Positions 7,313 to 61,069 of a stretch of 64,000 nucleotides of DNA are shown here, one piece after another (positions within the stretch are counted from its first letter, which is position 1; each line of letters opens with the position of its first letter). The notes below the pieces were generated by a model that saw only the letters and a program-made list of their open reading frames with translations, searched no databases and was not told the DNA's origin. Both the position numbers and the translations under genes were made by a program. Origin of the DNA: Octopus sinensis (Eukaryota); the NCBI RefSeq assembly GCF_006345805.1, contig NW_021832123.1, positions 124,001-188,000 of the forward strand, read 5' to 3'.

Positions 7313-9759
7313 ATGTGCAGTACTGGAATAATGATTGACTTTCTGGAGGATGACATAAAGAAGAGGCTATTCAACACCAAAGGAAACGAAATATTCAACA
7401 AATATTGGAACCTCCTTGAAGAAATGGAACAAGTTCATAAAATTAAATAAATCCCATTTTAGAGCATTCTAAACGAAAAACCCCAATTAATAAAAATCCA
7501 CAAATCAGTCAAAAACCTGATAAACACAGGAAAACGTTTCTAAGCAATTAATTCTCAGTCTACGCCGAGTCCCAACAAGAACTGTCCTCATCCATCGACG
7601 GACTCTTCTCCTCAAAAAGCCCCTCAAAAATGTTCGATTTGTCAAATTCAAGTAAAAATCCGAAATCAGTCCAGAACTCGGTTTTGTCCGTTTGGGAGTC
7701 CTTTTAAGGGAGTTCTCCAAACTCCACCAGTCGATGGTCTTATTTCCACGTGATTTCTAGTTGACCTCGGCCTCTGCTTCACTCCTCCCCCTCATCGACT
7801 CGCTCATTGTGTCCCTCCACAAAATAAAACACGACAAATCAATCGAGCGTTGTTCCAAACTTGTCGAATCAAAACTGTTGGCTCGTCCCCTTATTTTAGA
7901 AACACGTTTCGAGAAGTGCAAGTAAAGAGTGACCAGTCAGGAGTAGCCAGGGTACCCCAAATGTCCAAAAATGTCGAAGGCCAAGAGGGATTTGGAGGAG
8001 TCCCACCGAATGTTGTATTCGAGTATATCCGAAATGACAACACAACTAATAACTGTCAAGATTAGGAGAGAAAATGTGCTTCCGTTGGCTTTTTGTGATT
8101 TTTTTGATCGGAATCGCCGGTGGGGTATTAGGGGGATTATTTGGACAGAATGACGAAAGAACAACTCGATTTATTCGCGGAATTCGACACGTTTATGACA
8201 GAAACGAGGACCAGTTCTCAGAAACTCAAATCCTACTACATGGATGAGAAGGATCGACTGAGGAAGGTGAAGGAGACCCTCCGATGTACTCACGAGGTTG
8301 GTTTGGTGGGTGATTGAAGGGACAAATCTACCAAATGGAGAAGCCGGGAGTGAAGGAGGACATTCCCTACTCCAAGTCGGGGTACCTCTGGAAGAAGTCG
8401 TCGGGATTGACGAGTTGGGGGAAACGGCTGTGTGTGATCAGGGATGGGAGGATGTTGATTTATCACTCCACGGTGGATATTCCGTGATATTCACAGGAGA
8501 GAGACAAGCCGGTGGAATTGGATTTGTTGGTCTGTGATCTCAAAGTTTCCGCGGAAAACAGGCAATTCCGTGTTTACCACGGGGGATGTGAGTGTCTCGG
8601 GTCACGTTTAGCTTCCCGAGTCTATCACTTCAAAGCAAAGACCCCCAGATTGTTGGAGGAGTGGGTTCTGGTCTTCAATAATGCCAAATCCGCGGCACTC
8701 GACAGAGCCTTTCTCAACGAAAATCAGGGGATTGTTGAGTCGAACAGAGTGTGTGCTGACTGTGAGGATGAGGGTGTCCTTTCTGGTCTTATTTGGAGGC
8801 TGTGATTGGATATCAGTCAACTTGGGGGTGTTTTTGTGTCTCAAATGTTGTGGAATCCACCGTGAGTTGGGTGTCCAAGTGTCACGGACTTGTTCCCTCT
8901 CATTGGACGACATCGGGACATGTCACCTCCTGGTGGGCCACCTGAGTGACCGTAGATTATCTCCGTCGTTGGCAATGACGTGTTCAACTCTGTGTACACG
9001 TCTGGGGATGGGGGGTGTGGAATATCCCACACGTCCACAATGTAGGGGTCTTCTTATAGTCTGCAGGGATGAGAGGCGGAGATATATTACGGCCAAGTAT
9101 GTGGAGAGGAAGTTCGTGTTGCCTAGCCATGATGAAAGAACGTGGTTAAAACAACTTGAGTCATATATTTACACTGGCTGTATTCAGGGGCTGTTATCAC
9201 TCCATGCTGAACAGTTCGAGTTGGTGACTTTTTTTGATCAGGTTGGTCACGTAATGAATGAGTAGGAGTCCTCCAAAGTGGAGAATAATTCCCTGGCATT
9301 GGCTATTTCCCGTGGAAACTCTCAGCAGGCATTGGGAATTGTGGACTTTATGGTGCAAAATAGTGGAGTGTATGATTTGTGTGTTTATTGAAAGGGATAT
9401 GCTCGGAGTCAAGTTCTCTGACTGTGAGTCGATATTCCACTATGCAGTACTGAATAAGCACACGAATGCCCTTCAGATATTGCTTAGAGCCTGTCCGCGT
9501 GTGTTTGATAAGTTGGGGTTGTCGTTGTCGGAGGTTGCGGCCAAAATGGAGAATGAGGATGCCATTACATTGGTGAGGGGGTGAATTGATGTGGCAGTTC
9601 AGTGCTGCCAGACAGAGAGATAACACTCTTCTTAATAATCTGATGGGGAATGACTATTCCTTTAACATGTTTTCCATTTCCAAGAATTCTGAGGGGACGG
9701 TTTGAGTTGTGTTTGATAGTGCCAGAATGATGTGTCCAAGATATGGAGTCTTCTCTGAG
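7313..9759 (+). CDS. ArfGAP with BAR-PH-ArfGAP-ankyrin architecture (ASAP/ACAP family), multi-exon, ends approximate
   Basis: PH segment SKSGYLWKKS...WGKR; ArfGAP finger CADC...WISVNLGVFLCLKCCGIHRELGVQVSRTCSLSLD, ERRRYITAKYVERKF; ankyrin-like ESIFHYAVLNKHTNALQILL; several ~23-30 nt introns. Confidence 0.85.
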
Positions 9760-10207: not shown

Positions 10208-10912
10208 ATGCGTGATCGACAGTCTGCATTCAACTGCAGGCATTGCCACACACCCCTCAGAATACCCCCGAATTACTCAGATCATCTTTTCAAATGCCAC
10301 GAATGTAGCGAAAAAACTGTTTCCGAAACATTAACATCCCAAATAGGCCATTCGTCCTCCCCCGCCAGATCAGAAGTATATTCTCTGCTACTGCAATAAC
10401 ATTTTCCTGGTCGACCAATCAGCCAAAGAGGCCACTTGCACTAGAACTACTTGGTATTGCTTTCTCTGTCTAATCCTGAGTGGAAGTGTCATACTCATCA
10501 GCAGTATCTCCATAAAGGACGAGAAGAAAGCACTTTTGAATACTCGAGTGGCCTGTCCTTACTGTTCTGTGTTCTTCAGAGTCAGTCCTTCCAATATAAT
10601 GTGTAGACCGACAAAACTGAGAGCATGTTCACTCGCTGTCCCTCCTGTCGTAAAATGTATAGTAAAATACTTATTTCTCAGTTCTTCCTTCACAAATGTC
10701 TCTCCACGTATTTTGTGGTGTCTTTGTGCTCTCTTTGCAATCAGTTGTGCAGTGGGGTCACTGTACATGTCCTTCTACCACCAGAACATGGTGTCCATCA
10801 CAGGTAGTGACCCACTAAATGGCCAGTTCTACTCATTCTATACACACTCTCTCTAATCGGAACAGTCCATTTCCTAACTCTGCGAACAAACCACATTTGT
10901 GAGGTCGAATAA
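10208..10912 (+). CDS. TMEM55/PIP4P-like PtdIns(4,5)P2 4-phosphatase, multi-exon, 5' end may lie further upstream
   Basis: Spliced order CRHCH...KCHECSEKT-IRPPPPDQKYILCYCN...ACPYC...TRCPSCRK followed by hydrophobic C-terminal helices mirrors the TMEM55A/B Cys pattern. Confidence 0.65.
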
Positions 10913-10938
10913 TACATTATTTCAATAAATGGCATTCA

Positions 10939-12005
10939 TTAGTCAATTAGTGGCACAATAATCTCCACATAACTCGCAGGGAAATACCCATTCGACCCCC
11001 CTGAACTCCCATAAAACCAATTCTCGTCCACTTTCGATATCAACTGAACACTCTCCCCTGCCACAAACGACAACTCGTCCTCATTCTCTGCCACAAAGTC
11101 ATACAAAGCACGAGCCCACGGACCCTCCGCAGAACTCGAGTCCCTGACCAACTCCTTATCCTTCCTACCCAATAACCCCACAACTCACATATTCTCCAAC
11201 ACCTGACTCAACTCAGTAAAATTGGCCAACGACTCCTGGTGGTACCTCACAAAGGCGTCCACACACGCCCTCAGTTGGGTGATTTGTTCTAACTGGACGT
11301 GCTGTGGAGGACTACCTGGTTTTGGAGGAATGTGGCCATCGAGGCAGAACACACGTCCCGGGTCTGGTCAAACCGGACTTGCAGCTCATCCACCTCCTCC
11401 GACGTGACATCATTCGGGTCTGCTATTCAATCAGGGGCTACTTTTTATGCTCTTTCTTTTCTTACAGTCATATTCCAGTCGTCGGCTGTGCATTTTCTTG
11501 TTGTGGTGCTGAAATACTCACAGAAATGACTAACAGATATTTCCTTCAGTTCTTTGGTCTGGAATTGATTCAGAGGCTCCAAGAACTCTTGGCTGACCGT
11601 CTCCTCGAGCTGTTCTTTGTAGGAGGCCTGCAGTTTCATGGAGTCTCCCAAGGATTGGATGCACAGGGCTGGAATGTGGGGCACATCCAACCGTAATTCG
11701 ACTGGAGACTGAATTTGGATCCGTATTGAATGCAGGTCTCAGAAAGCTGCATTTCCGGATTTGATTTCCCGCTCTTTCCAATAGAAAATAGACTATTTCC
11801 TGAGTTTAGGTGGAGGTAGTTTTCCATTCTTTGGGAAATGTCTTTAATCATGTTGCCGAATAGTTGGCAGTCTTTCTCCATCATTATAAAGCCTTCGTCG
11901 AGTTCTGTTCCTTTTGCTGAACCAATTTTCTCGTTGACGTACTTTTATTAGGGAATATTTGGTTACTTGGTTAGCTTTGTTAAGTTTTCTGTTAAATCCT
12001 TTCAT
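10939..12005 (-). CDS. SH3GL: Endophilin A (N-BAR + SH3)
   Basis: MKGFNRKLNKANQ|YVNEKIGSAKGTELDE N-terminus, FLEPL BAR motif, C-terminal SH3 ARALYDF...DELSF...DENWFYG...GYFPASYV. Confidence 0.88.
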
Positions 12006-12426: not shown

Positions 12427-12870
12427 TCAGTCAGGAATACCCAAAGAGGGGTTCTTCAGCCGATCTTCGAGGTCCTCCAGGAAGGTCTGTGTGAGAATTC
12501 AACTGCCAACCTGATATCCTGGCACTCCTGAGACATCCGAAGATTTATTCTAAGCAAATAAAATGACTATATATATACTTTAATCATGTCTAGCATTTGA
12601 AGGCGAGTCTCCAAATCCCACATCTCAGTGACCTCGCACTCAAAGTCCTCGTCTTTGACATCCTGGAATGAGGGGCCACCTCACCTGCCTCATCGACTGG
12701 ACTGCCTCAATAATAAATGTCTCAATGTCTAGTTTATCCTTTATTCCACTGATCGTGTTCTTGTCATATTTCTGGGTAAGAAAACGCTTTTTGTCGACCG
12801 TTCTTTTCCCCTCCGAATTCACCTGCGGGACACTCACTTTGATCTTCTTCTGCGGTCTGTCAGAACTCAT
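12427..12870 (-). CDS. PP1 inhibitor of the PPP1R14 (CPI-17/PHI-1) family
   Basis: LTQKYDKNTISGIKDKLDIETFI resembles VTVKYDRRELQRRLDVEKWI including the phospho-Thr; three micro-introns give a C-terminal FLEDLEDRLK helix. Confidence 0.65.
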
Positions 12871-12965: not shown

Positions 12966-13607
12966 TTAAATACTCCTCCAAATAGAGGGACCCCTCTTAG
13001 GAGGAGACATGAACTGACTGCGGCCACACTGCTCGTTCCTCTGCCTCAACTGAGTCTCCAAACAAAGCACGTGCGTCCGACTAAACCTGCTGTGAGTACA
13101 CCCAATACTTGGTAGGCGAACGACTAGTCAACTCTAACCTCATATTGGCAGTCTCAATCTCCAAATGAGCCACCCTCTGCTTGAGTAGTTCATTCTCCTG
13201 GCAATATTGGACTATTCATACCTCTCTCAGTAGGCAGACCTGCATGTTCTCCTCCTCACAGTCACTCGTGTTGGTACTCGCCTCCACTGAGTCCGTACTC
13301 TCATCCTGGCTGTCATATGTGGGTTGTACCTCCACGAATATTCGCAGTGTCCTTCGAATACGTGAGCCTGACTTGTATTCGGTCACCGGGGTGGCTCCGA
13401 TCAGGGTATTTGGGGGGTTGGAGTTGTCGATTGGGACTCTACAGACTGCACAGGTCGGGGAGAGTGAGAGCCACTGGTTGAGGCATTCTTTGCAGAACAA
13501 ATGAAAGTTGGAACAGATCACAGGGAGGACAGGCTGGGTGTTATATGATTGGTTACTTGGGAATAGCAGATATTGCATAACTCTGACTGCCCTGTGGACT
13601 TGATCAT
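12966..13607 (-). CDS. OBI1: RING E3 ligase OBI1/RNF219-like (short form), 3' end approximate
   Basis: Spliced MIKSTGQSELCNICYSQ|PVLPVICSNFHLFCKECLNQWLSLSPTCAVCRVPIDNSNPPNTLIG closely follows the RNF219 RING plus the following CRVPI..ENP..IIG motif; 23-nt intron. Confidence 0.72.
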
Positions 13608-13859: not shown

Positions 13860-14859
13860 TTATGTTGGCAACCCCGTCAAAAAATAAAAACTATCAGTTT
13901 GAATCTGAGACTTGATATTTATTCCCCCATGGACGACTATCCCCGCCCTCACATTACCCCCCTCTACTGACACCCCACTATATATAACCTCCCAAAATAG
14001 TGAAACAGCAGCATGCAAAATCCATCCTCGGAGAAGGGGGAATCCCCCTCATTTCCACCTCCCACCAACAATTCATACACGTGTCATAGCAATACAGGTC
14101 ATTAAGGTCACTCCCTGTCGCAGAAATCCCGCCAAAAATGTAGATTCTTCCCTCCCAGGCCACCCCGGAATGCCCCCCTCGTGACACAGGAATGTCTCCC
14201 GTCGCCTCCACTGGTCGACAACTCATTTCTTCGGGTCTCAATCTCACCATTTGGTCAAAGTAGACCCCCCGAGAGAACCCCCCGTGAATATACACATATC
14301 CCCCACTGTAGACCATCACATGGCACTGTCTCGGGGGGAGGGGAAGGGGGAATGCCCGCCAAATCAACTCCGGGGGTTCCAGGACGTAGAGATTAGAGTC
14401 ATTGACAGGACTGGTAGAGAAGTCCCCTCCTCCAAAGATGTAGACAGTGTTGGGGGCGGAGGCACAGGAGTGGGTTGTCCGGGGGGAGGGGGCCTGAGGT
14501 TGGTGGTGGTCCACGGTTGTCCACTGCTGGGTGGTGAGGTCGAGATATTGAAGGGTGTTCACATTTCCGTGTGTGTTGGCACCCCCAAATGTGTAAATTC
14601 GGTTGTTTTGGAGTTGGAATGTGAACAGGGCGAATTCGTATGTTGGAATTATTCCTGAACAGTCCATTGAGTGAGTTTGAATGTGTTTTCCCAGGTCATA
14701 GTAAATCGTCTTGCTCTCCACTGTCTTCAAGGTTGCCCCTGTGATGATGTAAACACGCCCGTTCAAGAAGAGGGCATTGTGGCCGACGAGACCTTCTGAC
14801 TCTTCGTGGGGGACGAGAGGGTACCATGTGTGTGCACTTGCATTGTCAACATCCCACAT
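13860..14859 (-). CDS. RABEPK: Rab9 effector protein with kelch motifs (p40)
   Basis: WYPLVP...VGH, YDLGKH, IYTFGGANTHGNVNTLQYL, PSPRTTH, VYIFGGGD...VNDSNLYV, PPSPRMDFACC; last exon after a micro-intron gives IVVHGGINIKSQIQTD. Confidence 0.82.
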
Positions 14860-14949
14860 CGACGTTGTCGTGACTACTGGAATAAATCAATTTTGACAAT
14901 TCATTGGGTTGAATATGCATTTTATTTTTTCAGTCACAATTAAAAAGAC

Positions 14950-15870: not shown

Positions 15871-15879
15871 TTCATCATA

Positions 15880-16671: not shown

Positions 16672-17787
16672 ATGCAGTTGAATAATCAAGCTCTTTTGAG
16701 CATAGGCACAAAAGTGCTCAACGAAATTCTCGAATCCCGCCATAAAGCAAATTCTAAAGGGTAACCACCATAAAACTATTTTCCAGGGTAAAACCAGATA
16801 TAATTGATTGCATAGCACATGGTAATATAACCAAATATATTAAATCTAGACTTTTTTGACATTACATATACAATAACTAACCCACAGAACAATCGTCACC
16901 GAATAAAAGTATTTTTATCACTCGATGTAGATCGAAATGACGTTTCCTCTCATGAAAAATCAAAACAAAATAATAAAGCAGCCCCTCATCGATTTTTATA
17001 CTAAAAACGTGTCCTTCAACTCAGGTTTGGTCATCCAGTCTCACCACAGAAAGCACTGCCATCCTCGACTATGACTTGATCGAAGACACTTTGGAGGACA
17101 TGAGGAAGGCTCAATACCTCAAAAGAACCTGCATTCACGCCCTTGTCGATTTCTACATCCAAGGAGCCCATATGTCAGATCCCAGGGAAAGTCTGACTTT
17201 GTCTTTGGGGAGAACGGACAAATTGTATTGGTGGATAACCAGTTTAGATACTTCCAAGTGAATGGAACTATTTTTTGGGCAATATTTGCCATTTCCAGCG
17301 ACGACGCTGCCTATTTCCTATTTCTGCGACAGTTTGCTCAGGAATTTGGGAATATTCGAAAATACAACTCCAAAGCCCCGTCCATCAACTACTACGACGA
17401 GCCTCCACAGGAGCTGAAGGAATTCAACCTTCGGGGGACTCCAAACACGTGTTACATCACAATTAGTATAACTGTCCTTGTGAGTGCTCAGAAGTGGAAG
17501 AACGACACTTTTCAAAGCAGGGTCGAAACGTGATCTCAGATTTGCTGACAATCATGCCAATGCAGTTGTATTACAGTGTGGCCAATTACAATGTATTTGA
17601 ATGTGTTGAGTGTAGATGTTCTTCCTATCTCGCCTGCGTGATCAGAGTGTCTTCTTCATTAAGAGACTTAATAGATTTAAGTATGCCAGACTTCCAGAGA
17701 AAAAGACGACCGGGTTTACGTTTAGATGAATGTAGAGTCACTTCTGTTTATATAAATAGGATTTTTGTTAATTTCTTATACATCTAG
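16672..17787 (+). CDS. ARPC2: Divergent Arp2/3 complex subunit 2 (p34-Arc), multi-exon, 3' end approximate
   Basis: KPDIIDCIAH|DFFDITYTITNPQNNRHRIKVFLSL resembles [63 protein letters not shown]...TCYITI resembles [31 protein letters not shown]...GYITF. Confidence 0.72.
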
Positions 17788-17989
17788 AGTTATTTCCTTC
17801 CCTACCCTCCTTTTAAGAGGTAAATTAAATAAGAATAAAAATCAATTCGGTGGGGAGTGCATAGTAGAGGACAGATGTATTTAACATACACTTAATGCAG
17901 AAAAAAAGTGACCACTTAAAATTAATCCAAAATATCATAGTTTTACGTATTTTTATAAAAAATTCCAAAAGTTAACAATATCAGGGGAT

Positions 17990-18520: not shown

Positions 18521-18539
18521 CGTCTGGTCCGAAGAATGC

Positions 18540-19812: not shown

Positions 19813-19852
19813 TTACACTTAAAAAAAATTTTAACAGCGTGATTTCCATTGT

Positions 19853-21595: not shown

Positions 21596-22319
21596 AAACT
21601 CCCAACTCATTAACGTCGCTTACCCACATTAATACACTAATTTATATGCTCACAAACACCCAAACTAGCCATTCGTATAATGCTCACCATTTGATGCATG
21701 TCAGTCAATTGAACGTTTCATTTTAAGATTAACTCAGCAGAAATAGCCTACTTTTGTCCCTCGAATCATAGTTTGAGCCCCCTAGCGATCTCCGTCATAG
21801 ACGACTAGCACAAATAAAGAATAGAAAATAAGGACAAATCATTCAATGAGTGAAATACCAGTAAAGGCGGACCAATCCAAATTTGCTTCAAAGACAGGAC
21901 TAAAGTGAGACAGAACAAAAACTCTGTGGCCGATCAGCAAATGCATTTTCCAGGTACGGTCATCGACACAGCCATAAAACACTCCCACAAGAAAGTCAAC
22001 GACGGGCGCAGTATTTCTCTCGATGGACAACCAGTCAACGTGGTGCATGTTCTACGTAGTGCCGGCGGGTACCTTCAGGCGGAAGAACACTGCACCCACC
22101 TCAGCCAGCTTGTTAAAATCGAACTGAAGCGAGAACCAGCTTAAAAAGAAGCTTGATTGACTTTAAAAAGAAGGAATTTGGACTGTCTGATGAGGACTAC
22201 AATACCCAGCACTCCATTCGGTCATTTCGGCAGAGTCCCACTTTCTCGTCCCGAAGGAAAACTTCCCCCACGCCCACGAAGACCAGTCCGTTTAACACTG
22301 AGAATTCGTACACCTTTCG

Positions 22320-22650
22320 TCACCGAAAACCGGACAAGCTATTTCTGATGATTTTATTAATTTTTTTGAACATAGTTTCAATTTCGATGCTAAGAGTTTT
22401 GGCACTTTTATTAGGGGTGTTATTTGATAGTTCTACTAAAATCAAAATTTTTTCCTCTGTCAATATTTTTTCCTCCAGTTCCCGGATGTTTGTTAATTGA
22501 TCCATTTTTTGAATTTCTGAATCCCATCTGATACAGTTGATTTTGGGACTCCTATACTTACAGAAATCATTCGATAAGTCGTATTATGATTATAAAATGC
22601 AATAATTTGTCCTTTCAGGAAATCTGAAACGTGACTTCTTGTTTGACTAT
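22320..22650 (-). mobile_element. Tc1-like transposase N-terminal HTH remnant
   Basis: HVSDFLKGQIIAFYNHNTTYRMISVSIGVPKSTVSDGIQKFKK followed by ILT.EEK...NPNKSAKTL. Confidence 0.6.
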
Positions 22651-24560
22651 ATATTTTTAGCTTCTTTTCAACGATTTTTAGATCTATAAAAGTTCTTCCT
22701 AGTCGGTTTCTTAAAAAATAAAGTCTATGTTTGTTTCCAGGTTTCATGTGTATTTGGTGGCGTATCAAAACCTTGTGCACATTCTTGTCAATATTCTCAA
22801 ATTCGCATGGTTCGATATCAATGAGCCCGATGTAGTAATTATAAAACGATAATGCATGCTCATTGACAGCATTGAAAAAATTTGCAGAATTTAGCTTCGA
22901 GTCTGCCAGGCTATTAATTATCTCCTCGATTGCATCCGATATTGAGTTCATCGTGTCATTCTTCAAAACTCTGCTATCTTTGTCTTCCAATACTCCAAGG
23001 TAACGATAGTCATAAATCCCGTCAAGCAGCTTAGGTTTGCTACTCAACCCTTCAAGATTAGTTGCAGACTTTTCAGCGTTTTGCCCCAATCCGGCAGTTC
23101 GAAAGAATTGATCAACTTCGGCCACCATCCTTATTACAGTGTCTTTCTTTGGAGCAAACAATTTTAGGTCGTCCATGAACAACAAGTGGTTTGTTGAGTA
23201 TACCCGAGGACTATTGCCAAACTTTTCCACAAGCACATTTGGGAATTTCGCATTCAATATTCTACTCAGGGGGTCCAGTTTGCGGCGATAAAGAATGACC
23301 CTGCAAGATCTCCATTTCACCAATCTCTTTTTGATTAAATTTCAGCTTGATCTTCCATTTCGTGACAATTGCCTTGATAAAATCCACAATCCAATGGGGG
23401 AGGCCGGAGTTACCGAGGATTTGATGATCGACAGAGTCAAAAGCCTTCTTTACATCAATCCAAGCAGAAGGCAAATTATTCCCATTTTGTTGATGGACAC
23501 ATTGGTTGAGCAATGCCTGCTCTTTGGCTCCTTGGCACATTCTTCTCGTCCCCAATTGATTGTCGCTGATCAAATTGTATGCTTCAATGTAGTCCGTCAA
23601 TTTTCTGTTTACACATTTTGTTACAAGTTTATATAGATTTGACATGCAATAATCGGCTTCAGGTACTTAAGTGAGTTTTTTTGGAATAAGATATGTAATC
23701 CCTGTGTAGAACCACTCATCAGGTGTGTACTTTCCATATATGATATCCGCAACTTTCTTACAGAGGTATCGTGAACCGTACTAAACTTTTTCAAGAAAAA
23801 ATTGTATATGCCATTGCATCCACAGGCCCTCCAATTTGGCAGCTGGTTAATGATCTTTTGCAAAATCAGCAATTGTGTCCTCGGCTCCAGTCACCCGGTT
23901 ATCCATGGGCTCATGTTTTACCCAAACACTCTCCCAGAATGAGAGACACTGACTCTGGTCAAACATAAACTGTGTATTCTTCTTTTTCTCAGTCAAAATT
24001 CAGTAAAACTGCCTTCGGTCAAGTTCAAAACACATATTGTCCCTCCGATATTTTTTCCTTGCTTCACGGGTTGCCAATTTTTTTCAACCATTTTTACCTC
24101 ATCCTGGATGCAGGTGACAATTCTGGGTCAATGTATCATATGCTGGTTGGCCAGGATCTCAGCAATGTCATTGAGATTAGCCGGTTGTTTTGCTTTCATA
24201 AATTCCCCAATCGAGACATTTTTGCCAGTCAAAATTTCTTTGTAAGAAGCTGATAGGAAACTTTCCTGGTTGGCGTCCGTAAATCCCGTGGAATTATTTT
24301 TACTTGTCCGATTTGTGAATTAAACTCAATTAAGCACTTTCCAAAAAGAGAAATTTCCGTTTTAGAAGACATTTTTCTGGGTTTCCAAAGACAGATATGA
24401 GTCCCCCTTCACACCACTCCCCACAAGTGACTTCACATTCAATATTGACTTATTTTTCGCCCTTGTTATATGGGTTGTGAGATAAGCAAATTCTTTGGCA
24501 TTGGGCAGTCTCGGGCCACTTCATCTACGTTCTCACTGGCTTTTCTTTTCAATTATTCGT
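22650..24560 (-). mobile_element. RLE-type non-LTR retrotransposon, degenerate RT region
   Basis: WRACGCNGIYNFF, NLYKLVTKCV, NQLGTRRMCQGAKEQAL, WIDVKKAFDSVDH, ILQGHSLSP, NHLLFMDDLKL, YRYLGVLED. Confidence 0.88.
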
Positions 24561-24599
24561 AGGTAGGCCCTCAGGTAACGTTTCGTAAACTCTTCATTA

Positions 24600-24900
24600 C
24601 AAATATATTTAATTCTTTTTAATATTTAATGTACGTTGATGATATGAATATTTTTGCGTCTTCTCTAAATGAAAAGTTTCAACTAAATCTTGTAGATCTA
24701 AACAAGTTTTAATAAATAGATTTCAGCATTCATTGGCAGGTTTTTAAACAATTTATTCTGATTTGCATTTGTCAAAGCACTTTTTTAACCAAGGAATATA
24801 CAACAACTTAAGACCGCTTGTTTCCTTATAAGGACAATACAAATTTTTACAATCGGGTAATGGTTCAGAATTTTGTTTCTTTGAAAATTCAAATTTGATT
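24600..24900 (+). mobile_element. Highly decayed Ginger-like integrase fragment
   Basis: NEKFQLNLVDL...FAFVKAL...KFLQSGNGSEF resembles the NERFQVDLIDL...FLQSDNGTEF of intact copies. Confidence 0.5.
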
Positions 24901-25051
24901 TAAATCTGATTTTTCACAAGCCGCCTTCAAGTGCCATCAGCTGCTTTTTACGAAATAAATTAAAATATATTTACACAATTTATAATCTCAAAAACAAATA
25001 ATTTTACTAAATAAGATTTCCAAAGTTGTGGTTTTTGTATATTTTGTTACA

Positions 25052-25352
25052 ATGTACACAAAACCCAACAGTAAACTATCCTACGAGTACTACTTTCCTG
25101 TCACTTCTGAGGGAAAAACGAGTCCTAAACAACATGGCGGTTCGGAGGAGTCGTTCTAAGGCAAAGGAAGCGGAGAAGGCGCGAAAACTCGAACTGTCAC
25201 AAATCGAGGTTAACCACTCATACAATAAATATAAGAAAAAGTTGGCCAAGGCCACACAGGACTTGGAGAAGGCGATTCTAAAGAGAGGAGTTTTGGAAGA
25301 CTTTTACAACCAACTTATGACCAACATAAATAATTCTCACACTTTTATTTGA
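25052..25352 (+). CDS. Minimal C/EBP-like bZIP transcription factor (~80 aa after splicing)
   Basis: MYTKPNSKLSY-E|EKRVLNNMAVRRSRSKAK basic region (cf. RRERNNIAVRKSRDKAK); 25-nt intron and probable in-frame 27-nt intron. Confidence 0.65.
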
Positions 25353-25452
25353 ATGTTATAAAATTAAAATTACTTAATTATATAAAATTGATTCTTTTAA
25401 TTTATTTTTAAATTTATTAAATAAATAAACTGTTTTGTGTGGCTAACCTCAA

Positions 25453-27899
25453 ATGACCCAAGGCCAGCCTTGTGTGACAGGAATATCCCCCCTCAATGGA
25501 ACACCAGGAACCAAAATAACAATCCGGGGACAAAATTTTGGCCAAAAAGACACAGATCTGGTGTCAGTCTCCATATGTGGAATCGACTGTACCCTCTCCG
25601 CAGAGTGGCTGTCCCCCACCAAAATAACAGCCCGTCCTGGAAACTCCCCAGGAACAGGCGACATAATAATCACCACCAGAAATGGCCTGGTTGGCATTTC
25701 CCACCTCCAATTCACATGTCACGTGCCCGAGAACATTGGTCTGCTGGAGGAGGCAGGCTGCTGGGTAGACGAGGATGAGGCCAATTCCATTTCCATAGAA
25801 GTAGACGTCCTCAAAGTCCTTTCTGACCCACAAATCACTCTCCCTCAAGAAGAATGTAACATAAACAGCCCACTCTTCGACCCAGAGATATATATATCCC
25901 AAATATACTCCTCTGTCCCATTCTATCAACTGGAATCTGGCCTACAAGTCCTGAAAGACTACCTTCAGCCAGGAAACAAAGACCCTTTGGCCTTTTATAA
26001 GAAGAATCTCTCAGTCTACTTCGACAGCTACCGACGACTGGTCAGACTGGCCCAGTCCTTCTCCAAACAGGCCGAATTGAACCCAGAATTCTCCTCAATT
26101 TCGCGCCTACAAGAGTACCACGTGGTTGGTTTAATTTGAAGTGATGTTTCGCGCTCTTTTTCGTCACTTTTATCCCGCCAAAATAAAGTGGAGAAATGTC
26201 GACAGTTGGTGACCCATTTTAATCGATGGAGGAATATTTTCACTCTTCCCTCCATTTTGGATAACCATATAAAGCGCGGGAATTACCAGCAGGCTATTGA
26301 TGAGTTCCACAAGGCGGCTGTTTTTAAGGAGGGAAGGGTCCCCTCTGTGCTACAGCTTATATACTCCCACTCTGAGAAGATGATTGGGAAATTGAAACAC
26401 AATTTGAGGAATTCTTTGCTCAGTGATCCCTCATTGGGGCTGAAAGAACAGAGGTGTGTCCTCCTGACCAATCTAGTCATGCTTTGGCCATTTCTCAGGA
26501 CCCCCAGTTGGTCAGGGAATTACTGTCAGCTCAATTCGGCCTGATTAGAAAGCAGTTGTCTGTGGATTGTGGTGGTTTTAAGTTTGTTGCTAATTTTCTG
26601 ACTGTTTGGACATGTTGAGTTGGACTAGCAGGGAGATGGGGGAGAGGATTACTGAGTTTATTGCTCTCTGTGAGTTCTGCAGATCCCTGGACTTGGATGG
26701 GGGCATTCCAGGTGGGCATTGTGTGCTCAGACTCAGAATTGACAGAGGACCTCACCACTTCTGTGTTAAAACTGTACATAAATACAACCAGAGACCTGGG
26801 AGAGCACATTGGGAAGATAGCTGACCCAAGCCGGCTGCCTAGACTGAGTATTGGCCTTTATATATGCAGAATGTGCCCTGTATGAACACAGACAGAGTGC
26901 TCTACTCCTGTCGAGTGAGAAGGAAGGGCAGAACATAGGCCGACTGTGCCGGACTACCCGATTGGCCTGTTAATTGAATACAACTCAAGTGTAGGTATGA
27001 ATGCACACGTGAATTGTTGTTGTAAAGAAATTGATGGATTATTAATTGAATACAAGTCATGTTTGGAGTGTGTTGATGTGCTGGATAAAGTGGGGGTATT
27101 CCCTGCCAAGTTGTGTGAGGTCATTTGGGTGTTTATTGAGGTATTGGAGAGTGTGGTTTGTAGAGAGTGGAGACTGCTGTGGTCAGTCCTCTCCCTGGCG
27201 AGTCTGATTTCTTTGGCAGTTCATCCACAGTGGTAGAGTGTGATCTAATGGGAGGTCCCTTTCTGTAGGAGAATGTCTGAACTGCTCAGAGTCTACAGTC
27301 ATGGACTAAAGAGGCTAGTAAAGGAGGAGATGTCGTGGGAGGGGTTGTGTGTAGTGCTGGTGGATGTGGACATGATTGTGGACACAACTCTCCCCAGGAT
27401 TGCAGGCATGTTGGATAAACTTAATTTCCCCTCCATTGATGTGCAGATTGGGGAATTTGTGAAGGCCTGCCAGTAAGGGGACTGTCTTGATTGTAGGCGG
27501 AGGGGGAATGTCCTTTTCAGTCGCCTGGTTAGACAGAGGTGGAGTATTAGTGAGAGTGTCCTTGGGATGAGTTCACATGTGCATATTTTAATGGACAAAA
27601 TTATGTCACTGTGTGCTGAGGTGGCACTTGTTTCCTCCTGTCTGACTAAGAGGGCATTGAGACATTTGTGTGATGACTTTTTGAGTCAGTTGTTCGACAA
27701 GGGAGTGGAGAGAGTGCTCAGTCTGGGTGATTTGGTGGCTTTGAGAGAGATTTGTGGTGGACTGTGTGGAGAGGAGTATCGAGGCAAGTTGGACCAGGAA
27801 ATAGCTGGTCGTGGTCCAGTTGACGTTGACTGTCTTCTTGGGGATTTCCGGCAGAGATTTTCCCTGCAGTTGGAGTGTATTGGCCTGTCTATTGCTTAA
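25453..27899 (+). CDS. EXOC2: Exocyst component Sec5, multi-exon
   Basis: N-terminal IPT/TIG domain PCVTGISPLNGTPGTKITIRGQNFG...ICGIDC; FNRWRNIFTLPSIL..HIKRGNYQQAIDEFHKA; C-terminal FRQRFSLQLECI. Confidence 0.9.
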
Positions 27900-27925
27900 T
27901 TGTGGAATATTTAATAAATTTATAA

Positions 27926-28515
<590 letters not shown>

Positions 28516-29630
28516 TCAAACTTGTTTTCTGGTTAAGTAATCATTTTATTTGTTTGTTAGATTGGAAATTATTTTATACTAGCTCGGCAGCTCGCATCGC
28601 TCACCGCGACCTAGCTCCTGCGGAGGGCCTGTTTCATCAAACAACTATAAGTTTATGTAGATGTATAAAACTACCTGGTTTAATGTAACCCTATTCTATC
28701 GCCTGTTGATAAACGATGTTTGTCGTCCGTCCTTCCTTGGCATATATGAATAAATTTTCTCTTCTGCCTACCCTCGAGCATCCCACATACAGCTGTCCAT
28801 GTGAAAAGCACTCACTCTCTAAAAATAACCCAACTACATTTAATGACTGTCCCTGGGCCTTGTTTATTGTCATTGCACACTTTTTTTTTCATTTTTTGTG
28901 TTTATTTTTTTATATTTAATTTTTTCATTTTTCCTTTGTAATTTCCTTTTTTTTCTCTTTTTGTTTTTTACTGGCGGAAATGGGGCAGGGGGAGATGCGG
29001 CAGGCGGAAATGCGGCAGGCAAGAAAGCGACACACAAAAAGCGACACACAAAAAGATTTAATTAATTACCTTATTAAGCTGACCGTTTTTTCTTCAGCTT
29101 CGTTTTTCCTCCTTCGGTTATCTATTTAAAAAATTATTTTTGAATAATAAAAAAGTTTAGGAAAAGAGGATACCGAAAATAAATTCTATCTTTACGAAAA
29201 ACTCAAGTAAATAGTTAATATTTTTACGCAAATTCTTCTGATTGCGCTGTCAATTGGTGGTAAATTGTGTTAATGGTTGTGCTAATGTGGTTTCAACTAT
29301 CAAAGTGTTTTTCAAAATCTGTTAATTGCACACTCTATTCAAGGTCGTGCGTCAATTGGTGGTAAATTGTGTTAATGATTGTGCTAATGTGGTTTCAACT
29401 ATCAAAGTGGTTTTTCAAAATCTGTTAATTGCACATTCTGTCAAAGTCAAATATGATAATAGCTTTAATTTTGATTCATGGTCGAAAATGATATATGCAT
29501 TTAATTTTAAAGAGAAAAACATAGGATGAATTGAATTTCTTTATCGCGAATAATTGGGAGTTCATCATTGTTAATATTCTCGCTGTCGTTTTCATCAAGG
29601 ATATTCTTAATACGTGAGATTTTTGCCTTG

Positions 29631-31001
29631 AAGGTTTTAATGGACCTCATCATGAATGTCGAGGACATTCGCGGTGTTCATTTTAATCAAAATGCAGAAA
29701 ATTTTTTTTTAATTTTTTTGGGGGGGAAGGTTTTAAGGACCTCATCATGTAAGTCGAGGACATCGTAGTTGTTCATTTTAACCAAAATGCAGAAAATTTT
29801 TTTTTAATTTTTTTGGGGGGGAAGGTTTTAAGGACCTCATCATGTAGTCGAGGACATCGTAGTTATTCATTTTAACCAAAATGCAGAAAATTTTTTTTAA
29901 TTTTTTTGGGGGGAAGGTTTTAAGGACCTCATCATGTAAGTCGAGGACATCGTAGTTGTTCATTTTAACCAAAATGCAGAAAATTTTTTTTTAATTTTTT
30001 TGGGGGGAAGGTTTTAAGGACCTCATCATGTAAGTCGAGGACATCGTAGTTGTTCATTTTAACCAAAATGCAGAAAATTTTTTTTAATTTTTTTGGGGGG
30101 GAAGGTTTTAAGGACCTCATCATGTAAGTCGAGGACATCGTAGTTGTTCATTTTAACCAAAATGCAGAAATTTTTTTTTTAATTTTTTTGGGGGGGAAGG
30201 TTTTAAGGACCTCATTATGTAAGTCGAGGACATCGTAGTTGTTCATTTTAACCAAAATGCAGAAAATTTTTTTTTTAATTTTTTTGGGGGGGAAGGTTTT
30301 AAGGACCTCATCATGTAAGTCGAGGACATCGTAGTTATTCATTTTAACCAAAATGCAGAAAATTTTTTTTTTAATTTTTTTGGGGGGAAGGTTTTAAGGA
30401 CCTCATCATGTAAGTCGAGGACATCGTAGTTGTTCATTTTAACCAAAATGCAGAAAATTTTTTTTTTAATTTTTTTTGGGGGGGAAGGTTTTAAGGACCT
30501 CATCATGTAAGTCGAGGACATCGTAGTTGTTCATTTTAACCAAAATGCAGAAAATTTTTTTTTTAATTTTTTTTGGGGGGGAAGGTTTTAAGGACCTCAT
30601 TATGTAAGTCGAGGACATCGTAGTTGTTCATTTTAACCAAAATGCAGAAATTTTTTTTTTTAATTTTTTTGGGGGGGAAGGTTTTAAGGACCTCATCATG
30701 TAAGTCGAGGACATCGTAGTTATTCATTTTAACCAAAATGCAGAAAATTTTTTTTTAATTTTTTTGGGGGGAAGGTTTTAAGGACCTCATCATGTAAGTC
30801 GAGGACATCGTAGTTGTTCATTTTAACCAAAATGCAGAAAATTTTTTTTTTAATTTTTTTTGGGGGGAAGGTTTTAAGGACCTCATCATGTAAGTCGAGG
30901 ACATCGTAGTTGTTCATTTTGACCAAAACGCAGAAAAATTTTTTTTAATTTTTTTGGGGGGAAGGTTTTAAGGACCTCATCATGTAAGTCGAGGACATCG
31001 T
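29631..31001. repeat. ~95-bp tandem repeat, about 14-15 copies, differing mainly in T/G homopolymer length
   Basis: Unit aaggttttaaggacctcatcatgtaagtcgaggacatcgtagttgttcattttaaccaaaatgcagaaaa(t)naa(t)n(g)n. Confidence 0.95.
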
Positions 31002-32883: not shown

Positions 32884-33618
32884 ATGGTGTTATGTACAAT
32901 GATTGGAAGGATCGGTGACGGACTGCCACTCTGTGCCTCAACACAGGATGACAACGACGTACTCAACCCTTACCAACTAAACTAGACAGACTGTGACATA
33001 ATTGTCTACCAAAACAAGGCAAAACAGCTATTTCGAACTCTGGGACCCCAACATGAACCCAAAATGTTTTCCCTCGTTTCAGGAAAGTTCATTTTCCAGT
33101 AAAATATCTCACTAAATTACCACATAGTTGCCTAATAAATCACAAGGTCTGCCACTGCGTTCTCTGCAGGCCACTTTTCCCCAAAAAAGTGGCCTTTTCG
33201 TACCTCGAGGACATTTCGGAGGAATTCCACCGTAATTACGGAAACATGGTCGAACAGGCCCGCCGGACATACGCGTTCATCGAATTTGGTTGGGTGACCA
33301 TGTTGAGTGGCAGATATATACCTGCAGAAGGTGAAGAGTCGGTTCAGAGGGGGGGAGATGAGACACCTGGCCAATGAATTGAGCGATATTTCGAGTATTT
33401 TGGTGGGGAATATTGAGGATATTCTGGACAGACAGCAGACTTTGCAGAGTAAGGGGAGTTTGAGGAGTTTAGCTCTCGAGAACAGTACTCAGGACATGAG
33501 GAATTATTCTAATTTGTACAAGAATGAGGCCAGTAGGCTGAATCGGTCTTCCTGGACGTGGGCTTTGGTCTTTTTGGTAGCATTTATTTTGATTTTCTTT
33601 TATTTATTTAAATCTTGA
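32884..33618 (+). CDS. SEC22B: Vesicle-trafficking SNARE Sec22 (longin + SNARE + TM), 5 exons
   Basis: MVLCTMIGRIGDGLPLCAS, FSYLEDISEEF, RTYAFIEF|DIYLQK, C-terminal TM; introns 32959-32985, 33289-33313, 33449-33472 and one near 33100. Confidence 0.92.
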
Positions 33619-38122: not shown

Positions 38123-39559
38123 ATGTTGAGAGGAAATTGTGTCAAAACATTATCCAAAGCACTCTCTACACGAGCACCGAGACTAAACCCAATCACTTAT
38201 CTGACAGAAGAGGAAACATTGATACAAAAAAACGGTGAATTCTCCTTAGAGTCTTATCAATACATAGTGGCCACCTTCTCCCGAGAAATCCTTAAGCCCC
38301 GAGTACTGGAAATGGACAAGCAAGGATTCATAGACAGTCAAGTCCTCGAAGAAGGATTCAAAAACGGGGTTTAGTCTCAAATAAACCCAAATCGAGCAGA
38401 TTTTTAGCATAGAAATAAGCGAGGACATGGGTGGCTGTGGAGCCAGTTTTTTTGCCAGTATTTTGGCCATTGAACAAATCTCGATGGTCGATTGCTCGTT
38501 TTCGGTAGTCTGTGATGTCCAAAACACATTAATCATAACATTGCTCAAGAAATATGCCTCCTCCAAACTAAAGGACAAGTATTTCCCACGTCTAGCCAAG
38601 GATACGGTTTGTTGGCCTCGATTTTGAGGGCAGATTGGCTCGTTTTGTCTTTCAGAGACGAATTCTGGGTCTGATGCCTTTTCTCTCCAAACGAAAGCCC
38701 AGGAAACACCGAATGGGGATTTTGTGCTGAATGGAGCAAAAATGTGGATCACAAATGCCTCGATTGCTGGCATGTTTGTGGTATTCGCCACCATAAACCC
38801 AGAATTAGTACTTTTTGTGGGGTCAGTGTAGGGCTATAGGGGGATAAGCTGTTTTCTGGTTGATGGGAACTCGGAAGGCCTTTCTGTGGGTCCCCCAGAG
38901 GATAAGTTAGGTCTAAGGGCCTCTGGGACTTGTCCTGTGTATTTTGATAATGTTTTGGTGCCGAGAGATCACGTGATTGGTGAGTTGGGGAAGGGATATA
39001 AATATGCAATCGACATCCTCAATGAAGGAAGGATCGCGATTGGGGCACAGGTGTAGTCAAGCCCACATTTTAGATGGTTGGACTGGCGGAGGGATGTCTG
39101 GGGATTGCCTTGGAGTATGCCAAGGACAGAAAGCAGTTCAATCAGTCAATTCTTGACTTTCAAGTTTAATAAATTTAATATACGGCAGGCAGTCCAGCAT
39201 TGTATTGCTCAAATGGAGACTCAGATCAGTGCGGGGCGTCTGTTGGTTTACAACACGGCACGGGAACTGATGAATGGTGTGTCTGTGGCCAAGAATGCCG
39301 CAATCACTAAATATTTTACTTCGGAAGTATGTGATTGGCTAATGGGGTAGATGGCTGGTCGAGTTGCATCGCAGTCTGTTGATTTGATGGGAGGAATGGG
39401 GTACATTAAGGACTCTTTGGTCGAAAAATTCTACCGAGATGTGAAAATTGGTGAGTGTCGTGGAATATTGCAGGGACTATATATGAGGGGACGTCTAATA
39501 TTCAGTTGAACACAATTGCAAAGTGCATGCTCGCTGATCGGGGACTCATTTCTTCTTAA
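38123..39559 (+). CDS. ACADSB: Short/branched-chain acyl-CoA dehydrogenase, multi-exon
   Basis: [82 protein letters not shown]|[17 protein letters not shown]. Confidence 0.9.
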
Positions 39560-52190: not shown

Positions 52191-53843
52191 ATGCCAATGT
52201 TATATGTATATGATGTACATAACTTTATTACATTAATAGGATACCCCAAAGGAATCCAAATGTATGATTTTGGCTGTTTGTGCGACTATTTTTGGTTGCA
52301 CTCTCCAATTTGGACACGGAATTGCTGTGATTGACGGAATTGAGACTGTAAACTCATTATTTTACTGAATACTCAGTTTATCAGTAACTTGATATTAAAC
52401 GTCTTAAAAAGTCGTTATAAAGTCACTGAAAATAAAATCAAAAACACAGAGAATCTTGTCTATACTGGTATCGCCAGCATATTTGTGATTGGGACTATGT
52501 TCGGGTCATTTTTTGCACCTTTTTTGGCTGAAAAGATTGGAAGGAAGTCAGGACTAATCATAAATAACATTTTTGTTATAATTGGAGCCATTTTACAAGG
52601 ACTCTCTCAGAAAATGAACTCATTTGAAGTCATTTATGTTGGAAGGTTCTTTTCTGGTTTTGGAACCGGTCCTCATTTACTAATTAACCTCTGCAGGAGT
52701 AATCATTCCACTGTCCTTTATATATTTGATGGAAATTTCCACCAGGAAAAACCGAGGGAAATCTGCAGTTGCTAATCAGATTTTTATCTCAGTTGGAATC
52801 TGTTTTGGTCAGCTGATAACTTTTCAACAAATTTTTGGTTGATTGTCAAAACCAATTGTAGGGGTCCCGGCTTTGTGGCCGAATTCGTTTTCCATAGTGA
52901 TCCTTCCAGCCGTCTTATCTGCCTTAGTTTTGTTTTTCTGCCCTGAAAGTCCTCGCTGGCTGTTAATGAAAGGAAGAAAGACCGATGCTTATCATTGTCG
53001 ATTAACCACTTTTTAATTCTAGCTTTGCAAAAATTGAGGAAAAACCCAGACGTTGAAAACGAATTTGCTGAGATCATCAAAGACCAGGTGAACAGCATGT
53101 GTGAACCGCTGAGCATTTATGCTGTTTTAACCAATAAGAACTTGCGTCGACCTCTGAGTATTATTTCAGTTATTTTTTTTGTTCAACAATTCTCCGGAAT
53201 AAATATGGTTACTTGATTTACTTATTATCACAGATTCTTGCATTTTCTAACAAAATATATCGTGATGCTGGTCTAGCTCCTGAAAACATTCACTATGCAA
53301 TTCTTGGGTCAGGAGTAGCTCTCGTTATTTCGTCTAGTCTGGCCGTAAGTTTTGTTTTCAGTATTTCCAGGGAGTTCTCATCGATAGGATTGGACGGAAA
53401 AAACTTTTACTTTATCCTCTGGCCGTTATCATTGCAATGCTAATATTGGTTACTGTTGCTTTGGTCAAAAAAGTTCATGTTATGGCCATTGTGTGCATAT
53501 ATATTTTTATGCTCTGTTTTTCAACAAGTCTTGGGGTTATTCCTCAAACTTTAATGGTCGAATATTTCCAACAAGATTCCCGCTCAGCCGCTTCCTCGAT
53601 TGGAACTTTTGTTTACTCTTTGTCCAATTTTTTAGCGTTTTGGATTTTTAGACCTTTTATAGCAAATGTATATTGTTATATTTATATTTTTAGGACGCGA
53701 TAAAAAACTATGTTTTTGTCATTTTTATTTTTCTATGTTCACTGAGTCTAGTCTACCTGAAAACTGTGTTGGTCGAAACTGCCAACCGAACTTTCGCAGA
53801 AATAAGTCGTGAATTTACCAAAAATCAAGTATCAAAAGTATAA
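52191..53843 (+). CDS. Facilitated glucose transporter (SLC2A/GLUT, MFS sugar porter), multi-exon
   Basis: LQFGHG, SIFVIGTMFGS...KIGRK, VGRFFSGFGTG, YLMEISTRKNRG, PESPRWL, QQFSGIN, DRIGRK, EYFQQDSRSAA, VETANRTFAEI. Confidence 0.9.
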
Positions 53844-59318: not shown

Positions 59319-61069
59319 TCACTCAACTCGACTGAGAGGCGGCACACGACTGACCCGAACAAGTCCTCGGTCAGTCCTCATTTGTGCCTCCTTCCAAACT
59401 ACGCCCAAGTCATCCCCAACTTTCATGTGACTCTTCAATCCATCATACAAATCCTACCAAAATACGTGGAAGCACTTTTTTCTTAGCATTAAGTTGAACT
59501 TGATTTGTCTGAGGAGGAAATCCATCAAAATAAACGACATCCCCCGCCTGTGACTGTTCAGGCACAATCAACGGCTCCACTCTGCCAACATCACCACAAA
59601 CCAAACGTCTCCCTCTCCTCTGATTCATCCCTCCTTCCCTTAGCACACATAATCATCCCCTCAGACATAATCCCCCGCAAATTCGCCGGCTTCAAATTCA
59701 CCAAAAACACAAAATTATTTCCCGACAATTCCTCTTCAGTGCACGAATTCACCAACGAAGAACAAATTGTGAGTATTCGGCCTCCCCCCACGTCTACCCT
59801 CTCCACAAATAACGAATCCGCGTTCTCGTGCTGCCACTTTGATTAAAAAACTAACTTTTTTGACGGAAATAATTTTCCCAACACGGAAATCGCAGACAGT
59901 GGGGTCAGAAACAACGGATTCAACGGTAGGGGTCACCACACGTGCTTTATTATCACCAGGATACGCCGAGGTGACAATCTTCTGCATTTTTGGCGACTCA
60001 AACGCCTTTAGAATTGGGGCAAGAAGATAATTTATTTCCCGTGAAAGTGCAGCCTTGACATCGGCAGGGTGAAGTTTAAGAGACAAAAAGTCCTCCTCAA
60101 CCTGCTCGTAGGACAAGTACTCGACAGTCCCCAATTCAGGAGACTCAACAAAGAAGACTTTGACAGATTTAAAGTCGAGGATTGGAAACACGACCATTTT
60201 AAGAAATGCGAGGACTCCGTTGTCCTCGAGTGACCCCGGCATACAGAAAGCCTTCCTGATTTTATTTTGAACCACTTTGGGTGGGTCAAGAAAGTCAATT
60301 TTAGAATCAATGTCTGAAGCACTCATTTTGCCCCCCGTCAGTCCAGGAACTACAATGAGGGGGAAATAGTGACCCATTGGGTTCATCAAATGAGCTCTCT
60401 TGGCATACCCCAACTGTGGGAGGTACTTTTCCGCGAATGTAAAAATCTTTCTTTGATCGACTCCCCCGAACTGAGCATCCACTTTGAGATATTCTTCATC
60501 GAGTGCCTGAAGACAGGGATAAAGCAATCCCCCAAGGAGAGGATGGTCCACTTGTTTGACCACCTCACTTCCTGCCTTCCTGGCATCGTGTTGAGTCACC
60601 AAAGTGGTCATTTTAAACATATCAATCACATAGTTCCTATTTGTAGTCAAAATTACTCGACCTGTCCAATTGGTAGTCAGTGCCCTTCACAAAAACAAGG
60701 TCGTCGGTGGGGATTCCCAACGAGGACATGACTGCGGATATCACCTCCCGGTAGTAATCCACTCGGTGGTTGACCAGGTCCCAACCGGCCTTCAGGTTAT
60801 CGAGAACAGCGTGGAGATCTGCCAAGAGAATTGTGACTTGGCAGCCCGCTTTGAGGAGTTGTGCTATTTTTACTAGTGGCACAAAATAGCCAATGTGGGG
60901 TTTCCCTGTGGTGGCGGTTCCCCAGTACACTTTGAGAGGGCGATGGGAAATAATTTCTTTTATTTTCTCCTCTCCTAAGACTTCCTAGGAGTCTTTAATG
61001 TGATCTAACCTGCAGTCCTCGTGTTATTAAAGAATATTTCTCATCAACGTTTACAACCACACGTGACAT
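59319..61069 (-). CDS. YARS1: Cytoplasmic tyrosyl-tRNA synthetase with C-terminal EMAP-II-like domain
   Basis: GLQ|EVLG (25-nt intron 60985-61009), [71 protein letters not shown]. Confidence 0.95.

Follow-up and report, generated by a model that had tools for sequence, protein, structure and literature searches.

In unicellular fungi, the GC skew has opposite signs at the 5' and 3' ends of genes (McLean and Tirosh 2011, PMC3315797), and in the accessible text of that study the flat AT skew served its authors as an argument against deamination. In mammals, a transcription-associated A>G/T>C asymmetry has been described that is roughly constant along introns and is weaker near CpG-island promoters (ratio 1.1 versus 1.5 to 1.7), as far as the accessible text goes (PMC2817419); two further papers (PMC5786239 and PMC2927911), in their available portions, describe skews linked to transcription in animals but no flip within individual genes. 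Here we describe a 64-kb stretch of DNA (contig NW_021832123.1, positions 124,001 to 188,000), referred to as a whole as the window, in which the coding strand of EXOC2, the Sec5 gene, and of other genes passes from C/A-rich to G/T-rich within the gene. This skew is anchored on transcription units rather than on the AT-rich spacers between them. The skew is shown in this one window, chiefly from its 16 modelled genes.

The focal gene and its two compositional zones are as follows.

25453..27899, + strand: EXOC2 (Sec5) gene, about 743 codons, with nine modelled introns of 22 to 27 nucleotides (nt) and TIG and Sec5 Pfam matches
25453..26120, + strand: EXOC2 5' zone, coding strand C/A-rich; G+T at silent and intron sites 0.29; change point 668 nt from the ATG
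26121..27899, + strand: EXOC2 body and 3' zone, coding strand G/T-rich; G+T at silent and intron sites 0.64, and 0.72 in the last 300 nt

A sequence-only reading of the window had claimed a switch from C/A-rich to G/T-rich in EXOC2, and the switch is real. Between 25450-26100 and 26550-27890, G+T on the plus strand rises from 0.41 to 0.61, GC skew, (G-C)/(G+C), from -0.22 to +0.33, and TA skew, (T-A)/(T+A), from -0.16 to +0.14; the cumulative dip was matched by 0 of 5000 shuffles of 30-nt blocks. At four-fold degenerate sites, G or T accounts for 26 of 107 positions in the first interval and 82 of 136 in the second.

In sliding windows, the other genes named by that reading also rose from left to right; since a C/A-then-G/T order is the same whichever strand is read, genes of both orientations begin C/A-rich at the 5' end and finish G/T-rich at the 3' end of the coding strand. 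Its extension of the switch to ArfGAP, endophilin, RABEPK, SEC22, ACADSB, and TyrRS held at silent and intron sites (6116 sites over the 16 genes): together with EXOC2, these seven genes rise from 224/729 to 1548/2485 G+T, each of them significantly (P from 1e-4 to 2e-15). The nine other genes rise from 359/865 to 662/1243 (0.42 to 0.53; P = 1e-7); the effect is thus reproduced, in weaker form, by genes outside the original sample. Gene by gene, the rise is significant in 10 of the 16 and upward in 14, four of these by 0.09 or less. Over successive fifths of the genes, G+T runs 0.34, 0.39, 0.54, 0.56, and 0.59 at four-fold sites and 0.35, 0.52, 0.60, 0.57, and 0.72 in introns. From the first to the last fifth, GC skew moves from -0.40 to +0.17 at four-fold sites and from -0.67 to +0.68 in introns, and TA skew from -0.26 to +0.18 and from -0.16 to +0.28, respectively.

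In the first 300 nt, G+T is 0.34 to 0.43 depending on the site class. The log-odds shift from there to sites beyond 450 nt is 1.18 in introns, 0.98 at two-fold purine, 0.90 at four-fold, and 0.67 at two-fold pyrimidine sites, versus 0.40 and 0.20 at codon positions 1 and 2; because the silent and intron shift is 2 to 6 times that of codon positions 1 and 2, proteins are not the cause of the skew. In this comparison, the 28 introns with lengths in agreement with RNA gap totals pass from 11 G, 40 C, 36 T, and 59 A to 80 G, 50 C, 109 T, and 70 A. The asymmetry is therefore present at neutral sites, with a change of sign in both skews, and goes beyond protein composition. The switch is not evident in GLUT (P = 0.3) or in transposons, as had been noted by eye: none of the 11 transposon open reading frame (ORF) stretches rises steadily across thirds, and four-fold GC is at most 0.45 in 10 of the 11. 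The ALMS ORF, read raw, likewise shows no steady rise (thirds 0.54, 0.35, and 0.57).

The other genes, with G+T rises on the coding strand, and the spacer beside EXOC2 are listed here.

27986..28515, + strand: centrin; weak rise, 0.32 to 0.48; EF-hand matches; 26-nt RNA gap
7313..9758, + strand: ArfGAP; rise 0.29 to 0.73; ArfGap match; 3' introns fit RNA gap totals, 5' half modelled without RNA
10208..10912, + strand: PIP4P/TMEM55, an exception whose last 140 nt are C/A-rich; weak Tmemb_55A match (E = 0.001), below the cutoff
10939..12005, - strand: endophilin; strongest rise, 0.25 to 0.84; SH3 match; 143 nt of introns equal the RNA gap
12427..12870, - strand: presumed PPP1R14-like gene, an exception without a 5' C/A zone (5' G+T 41/66 versus 336/986 in other genes)
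12966..13607, - strand: RING gene; rise 0.30 to 0.63; zf-RING_2 match; the model's uncertain 3' end is excluded
13954..14859, - strand: Kelch-repeat gene, the RABEPK of the sequence-only reading; rise 0.33 to 0.60; Kelch matches
16672..17729, + strand: presumed ARPC2-like gene; rise 0.40 to 0.63; tested piece without a Pfam match
32884..33618, + strand: SEC22; rise 0.29 to 0.74; Synaptobrevin match
38123..39559, + strand: acyl-CoA dehydrogenase (ACADSB); rise 0.33 to 0.66; Acyl-CoA_dh_M match
59319..61069, - strand: TyrRS; rise 0.35 to 0.75
52191..53843, + strand: GLUT, a negative case; 0.49 to 0.51; four-fold GC 0.36
27900..27985, no strand: spacer of 86 nt between EXOC2 and centrin; G+T of its halves 0.51 and 0.56; polarity resets at the centrin start (first 300 nt 0.32)

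Gene models were built by a splice-site search, and those at 8601-28600 were also constrained by gap totals in RNA-like contigs. Three contig sets (X2 to X4) were taken as spliced RNA from their gaps and a fourth (X1) consists of DNA contigs; the mapping spans 20 of the 64 kb. Within genes, X1 and X2 differ from X3 and X4 at about 1%; substitution tallies from these contigs were set aside, since multicopy transposons make up most of them. Frame-uncertain stretches were excluded (EXOC2 26440-26612 and 27138-27315, and large parts of ARHGAP26 and DONSON), and the ALMS-motif gene, the gene called a protease in the sequence-only reading, a small gene at 25050-25352, and lectin-like duplicates lie outside the 16 models. 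The names DONSON, ARPC2, and PPP1R14 are our assumption, the tested pieces having no Pfam match, and the gene with BAR and RhoGAP matches is one that we take to be ARHGAP26. The RNA-like contigs show gaps of 101, 117, 27, 142, and 73 nt in EXOC2. At 26530-26612 of this gene, the gap totals of 101 and 73 nt demand a 26-nt intron for which there is no in-frame GT..AG solution; the best fit, GT..TG at 26575-26600, may reflect noncanonical splicing, a different allele, or a discrepancy in the assembly. The centrin intron at 28133-28158, a GC..AG intron of 26 nt, equals the 26-nt gap in X3 and X4. Furthermore, the CpG observed/expected ratio of EXOC2 is 0.23 to 0.38, compared with 0.60 to 0.68 in the pooled genes and 0.69 to 1.03 in transposon stretches, and gene-specific methylation of EXOC2 is possible on this ground.

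The geometry of the skew was best described by a gene-oriented model in which the 5' zone and a weaker 3' zone each have their own amplitude. Its Akaike information criterion (AIC) was 8177, compared with 8203 for a 5' zone only, 8207 for symmetric zones, 8223 for a line in relative position, and 8466 for the null; the leave-one-gene-out loss was 4107 for the asymmetric, 4125 for the symmetric, and 4124 for the linear model. In a bootstrap over genes (60 replicates), the amplitude was 1.05 (0.74 to 1.29) at the 5' end and 0.38 (0.16 to 0.56) at the 3' end, a difference of 0.66 (0.38 to 1.02) that makes the 5' zone about three times stronger, and the switch lay 454 nt from the ATG (374 to 595). 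A 3'-only model (AIC 8385) and a chromosome-strand baseline (term -0.04) were rejected. In the flanks, G+T is about 0.50 beyond 50 nt past the stop codon and 0.50 to 0.54 upstream, GC skew in six 50-nt bins upstream of the 16 start codons is +0.06 to +0.30 (some of these flanks overlap neighbours), and none of 7 spacers shows a G/T-to-C/A flip between its halves (difference -0.05 to +0.11).

Two junctions, single cases chosen post hoc from the data, show no reset. The last 140 nt of PIP4P (G+T 16/51 versus 306/480 in other genes) have the polarity of its convergent neighbour, endophilin. At 10770-10940, the stop codons of this convergent pair are 26 nt apart, and their 3' ends probably overlap. 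Between RING and PPP1R14, polarity fails to reset across a 95-nt AT-rich spacer. The coding strand of this spacer (12871-12965) has 1 C versus 16 G, with an acceptor-like AG three bases before the ATG, and an X2 contig runs 40 nt upstream of PPP1R14 unspliced; the pair is a candidate for a shared transcript or trans-splicing. A division of genes into left and right halves was correct as to the existence of a switch but not, in the long plus-strand genes, as to its place, which is at 27 to 33% of the length in EXOC2, ArfGAP, and ACADSB, and a reset in AT-rich spacers occurs between EXOC2 and centrin but not between RING and PPP1R14. The idea of an asymmetry polarised inward from each AT-rich spacer finds little or no support, given the stronger 5' zone, the absence of a spacer flip, and the two nonresetting junctions. 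Of the mechanisms offered with it, transcription or repair survives, although anchored on the gene and not initiated in the spacer.

The composition of the two zones was compared at four-fold sites of the 10 significant genes. On the template strand of the 5' zone, the frequencies are A 0.13, C 0.17, G 0.37, and T 0.34; on the coding strand of the 3' zone, they are A 0.19, C 0.22, G 0.35, and T 0.24. The G/T-rich strand is therefore alike in both zones, which are near mirror images on opposite strands. In the same genes, the contrasts over all neighbouring bases are 0.97 to 1.73 log-odds for G/A and 0.66 to 1.33 for T/C, and a context test showed little influence of neighbouring bases and no preference of the polymerase eta (WA) or APOBEC (TpC) type, with T before G slightly higher. 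Decay of CpG was rejected as the driver (observed/expected 0.68 in the 5' zone versus 0.60 in the 3' zone). Four-fold GC correlates with the amplitude over the 16 genes (rho = 0.57, P = 0.02).

We give roughly even chances to the reading that the skew stems from a transcription-linked mutation bias of A to G and C to T that targets the coding strand within gene bodies but would switch to the template strand close to promoters. Such changes by deamination on an exposed or less repaired strand are established chemistry. If base composition reflects mutation rates, the G/T-rich strand would be the exposed or less repaired one. In the gene body, the coding strand would mutate from A to G and from C to T; in the first 450 nt or so, the bias would be reversed, the template strand presumably being exposed through antisense transcription or antisense R-loops. 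An excess of A-to-G change would raise the GC of affected genes, and weakly constrained proteins, such as the EXOC2 C terminus, would drift toward G, V, C, W, F, and L. In favour of this reading are the size of the shift at silent and intron sites, the better fit of the gene-oriented asymmetric model, flanks close to even composition, the mid-gene lean toward G/T on the coding strand, the polarity that the PIP4P 3' end shares with endophilin, and the correlation of four-fold GC with amplitude.

Several points weigh against this reading. The models are separated by a modest margin only, and in cross-validation a 5' step combined with a term for relative position does just as well (4107). Longer genes tend to have later change points, at 247 to 440 nt in significant genes below 1 kb and at 474 to 916 nt in the four longest significant genes, with that of TyrRS at 52% of its length; this scaling agrees with what meeting forks or a two-sided decay would predict. 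The set contains one long minus-strand gene only. Mid-gene G+T on the coding strand is 0.54 to 0.63 by site class, but four-fold sites alone are marginal (P = 0.053), and for intron GC the correlation with amplitude falls short of significance (rho = 0.39, P = 0.15). Six of the 16 genes (ARHGAP26, DONSON, GLUT, PIP4P, PPP1R14, and the gene at 1777-2485) show no significant rise. Selection on promoters may mask a skew in spacers, and splice signals may account for some of the intron T. Composition alone cannot prove mutation, and our literature searches returned no paper on antisense R-loops or convergent transcription as the source of such a skew.

More tentatively, it can be envisioned that a per-gene, strand-switching mutator is at work in this animal lineage, in which every active promoter would expose the template strand over about 450 nt in the cells that transmit the genome, through programmed resected breaks, a gene-level start of replication, or stable antisense R-loops. 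If true, such a mutator would set the GC of genes, rewrite unconstrained protein tails, and help to explain the extreme divergence of these parasites.

Selection on nascent RNA or transcription is somewhat less probable again. In such a scheme, a G-poor, C/A-rich 5' transcript would avoid structure, R-loops, and early termination or would slow early elongation, the latter by the cytidine triphosphate (CTP) idea set out in the accessible text of PMC3315797, and a G/U-rich 3' end would aid termination. A zone linked to where the gene begins and of fairly constant length fits this scheme, as does the fact that introns belong to nascent RNA, and the idea was proposed for fungi. However, the near mirror-image four-fold compositions of the two zones on opposite strands speak against it, as do the movement of both transition classes, the overriding of EXOC2 amino acids, and the 3' end of PIP4P, which follows its neighbour; the CTP idea also would not predict a T/A flip.

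It is unlikely, to a similar or slightly greater degree, that double-strand breaks arising at promoters and gene ends undergo resection and that their exposed 3' single-stranded tails are deaminated, so that the strand whose 3' end points to the spacer turns G/T-rich over the resection length. The polarity fits, the G/T-rich strand always having its 3' end toward the gene boundary, the 450-nt scale is of the order of resection lengths, and the symmetric fixed-length model beats relative position (AIC 8207 versus 8223). Nevertheless, upstream flanks at just 0.50 to 0.54 G+T and spacer halves without a flip do not fit, TyrRS, SEC22, and endophilin are strongly G/T-rich at the 3' end without a modelled promoter after them, and a TpC or WA context signal is absent.

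Dense replication origins, which the sequence-only reading had proposed, are improbable on grounds of amplitude and geometry. An efficient origin in nearly every spacer, with forks meeting inside genes, would give the yeast polarity of a C/A-rich leading strand, as in budding yeast (PMC3459929) if origins sit in spacers; change points partly scale with length, and the linear relative-position model captures most of the signal. However, the GC-skew jumps of yeast are about 9% in the accessible text (PMC3459929), whereas four-fold sites here shift from -0.40 to +0.17 and introns from -0.67 to +0.68, and origins would be needed every 0.5 to 2.5 kb, firing almost always. The difference between the 5' and 3' zones, the unskewed spacers, and the two junctions without a reset are further points against such origins.

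We regard gene-sized linear or circular DNA units, the idea favoured by the sequence-only reading, with replication from their ends producing the skew, as very improbable. Dicyemids, the group to which the source organism likely belongs (see below), have small circular DNAs and reported rearrangements, but in the accessible text the conserved domains on dicyemid circles are mitochondrial only (PMC6543705). Moreover, one DNA contig is unbroken over 8601-14323, passing through five intergenic gaps, and the contigs that span the spacers of EXOC2 have gene-like depths of 116 and 120 versus 129 within the gene, although contigs are blind to molecule ends and to minority forms and the absence of end pile-ups among them is uninformative. 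Somatic units would fail to be inherited, and end-initiated strand displacement would give the opposite polarity.

Protein composition alone can be dismissed, even though the C-terminal part of EXOC2 is rich in G, V, C, W, F, and L (136/337 versus 66/216 residues), because the shift is largest in introns and at silent sites, 42 full-length EXOC2 homologues are flat (P = 0.9), and TyrRS has a silent gradient without an amino acid gradient. The predicted bias in amino acids is present in EXOC2, which has the steepest shift toward G/T-coded residues when set beside those homologues (rank 1 of 43, rho = 0.18, P = 3e-6), but not in TyrRS, for which 60 of the 120 homologues retrieved gave no significant residue shift (rank 7 of 61, P = 0.16). 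Since EXOC2 is shifted and TyrRS is not, the bias reads as a consequence where constraint is weak.

The source organism is likely to be a dicyemid, judging from intron size, GC content, and gene content rather than from a phylogeny. Genes with ALMS-motif and centrin Pfam matches are both present in the window. To our knowledge, myxozoans have no centrioles, which bears on these two genes. The guess that the DNA is dicyemid was a fair one: the 93 modelled introns of the 16 genes have a median of 25 nt (range, 20 to 33), a trait that, in the accessible text of PMC13644364 (see also PMC6543705), is found among animals only in dicyemids and in myxobolid myxozoans. The GC content of 37.0% and the 93 introns per 16 genes resemble the 36.7% and 6.2 introns per gene of Dicyema japonicum (PMC6736024); that of H. 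salminicola is 29.1% (PMC13644364). TyrRS has animal matches with at most 60% identity among the best 120 of 4957. The Kelch gene has two matches at 24 to 30%, and the named proteins among 11 EXOC2 matches checked are from a louse, leech, ostracod, hagfish, whipworm, beetle, and acanthocephalan. Queries with the TyrRS, EXOC2, and Kelch proteins found no close relative, and no named dicyemid or myxozoan protein, among the matches listed. The species label of X1 is common to runs in which none of the window's sequence words occur, and a second label has a near-identical form, which suggests that the source DNA is a passenger in host samples.

Elsewhere in the window, a tandem repeat at 29770-30950, G/T-rich on the plus strand, is visible as repeating translations, and a near-identical segment is duplicated (44584-45056 and 56703-57163, also 46922-47158 and 57429-57665), carrying an ORF piece that is presumably lectin-like. 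A secreted-looking gene at 21204-22500 has Thr/Ser-rich repeats and is mostly C/A-rich; a divergent second form of 21521-21595 occurs in X1 and X4. At 20077, in a transposon-rich stretch, a contig of X1 ends loosely in 9 telomere-like letters, a single case too short to interpret on its own.

The closest known case is the opposite 5' and 3' GC skew of fungal genes, so far as the accessible text of that study describes it (PMC3315797). In both, the coding strand is C-biased at the 5' end and G-biased at the 3' end; three regimes, a 5' ramp, a plateau, and a 3' ramp, are anchored on the start and stop in fungi, and the asymmetric two-zone model is best here by a modest margin. Four-fold sites and amino acids are affected in both, and part of the genes takes part (33% are significant in Candida albicans). 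Of five fungal-type features tested, three fail here. Unlike the flat, A-biased AT skew of fungi, TA skew changes sign in step with GC skew (at four-fold sites, from -0.26 to +0.18); degenerate and nondegenerate sites shift equally in fungi but by 0.67 to 1.18 versus 0.20 to 0.40 log-odds here; and the C bias peaks in the fungal promoter and 5' untranslated region, whereas the upstream flanks here, with transcription starts unmapped, are weakly G-biased. The organism is also an animal, in which 10 of 16 genes are significant, by another test and in a small, partly preselected set.

As in mammals, the gene body leans toward G+T on the nontemplate strand, with the A/G axis leading; in mammals the sign does not reverse within the gene, whereas here it flips within about 450 nt (PMC2817419). 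Likewise, a C/A-rich strand leads from an intergenic source at budding yeast origins, where GC and TA skews move together; however, the yeast jumps of about 9% occur at sparse origins, are seen in intergenic DNA, and are independent of gene orientation (PMC3459929), and those described here are far larger, per gene, oriented, and absent from spacers. We found no report of such a skew in dicyemids or myxozoans in the literature outside subscription papers and supplements, and the term "skew" is absent from the accessible text of two dicyemid papers (PMC6543705 and PMC6736024).

A position-dependent residue bias, shown here for EXOC2, could distort the phylogenies of long-branch parasites, and the skew could be of use in finding where genes start, in spotting operon-like pairs, and in recognising genes that are silent or have newly arrived. 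Because it lies on the G/A and T/C transition axes, a deamination or repair model, which the fungal data disfavoured, becomes directly testable. In conclusion, the skew of this window is a strong variant of a known, unexplained pattern, on the evidence of a single window, and it is visible here gene by gene, with T/A included.
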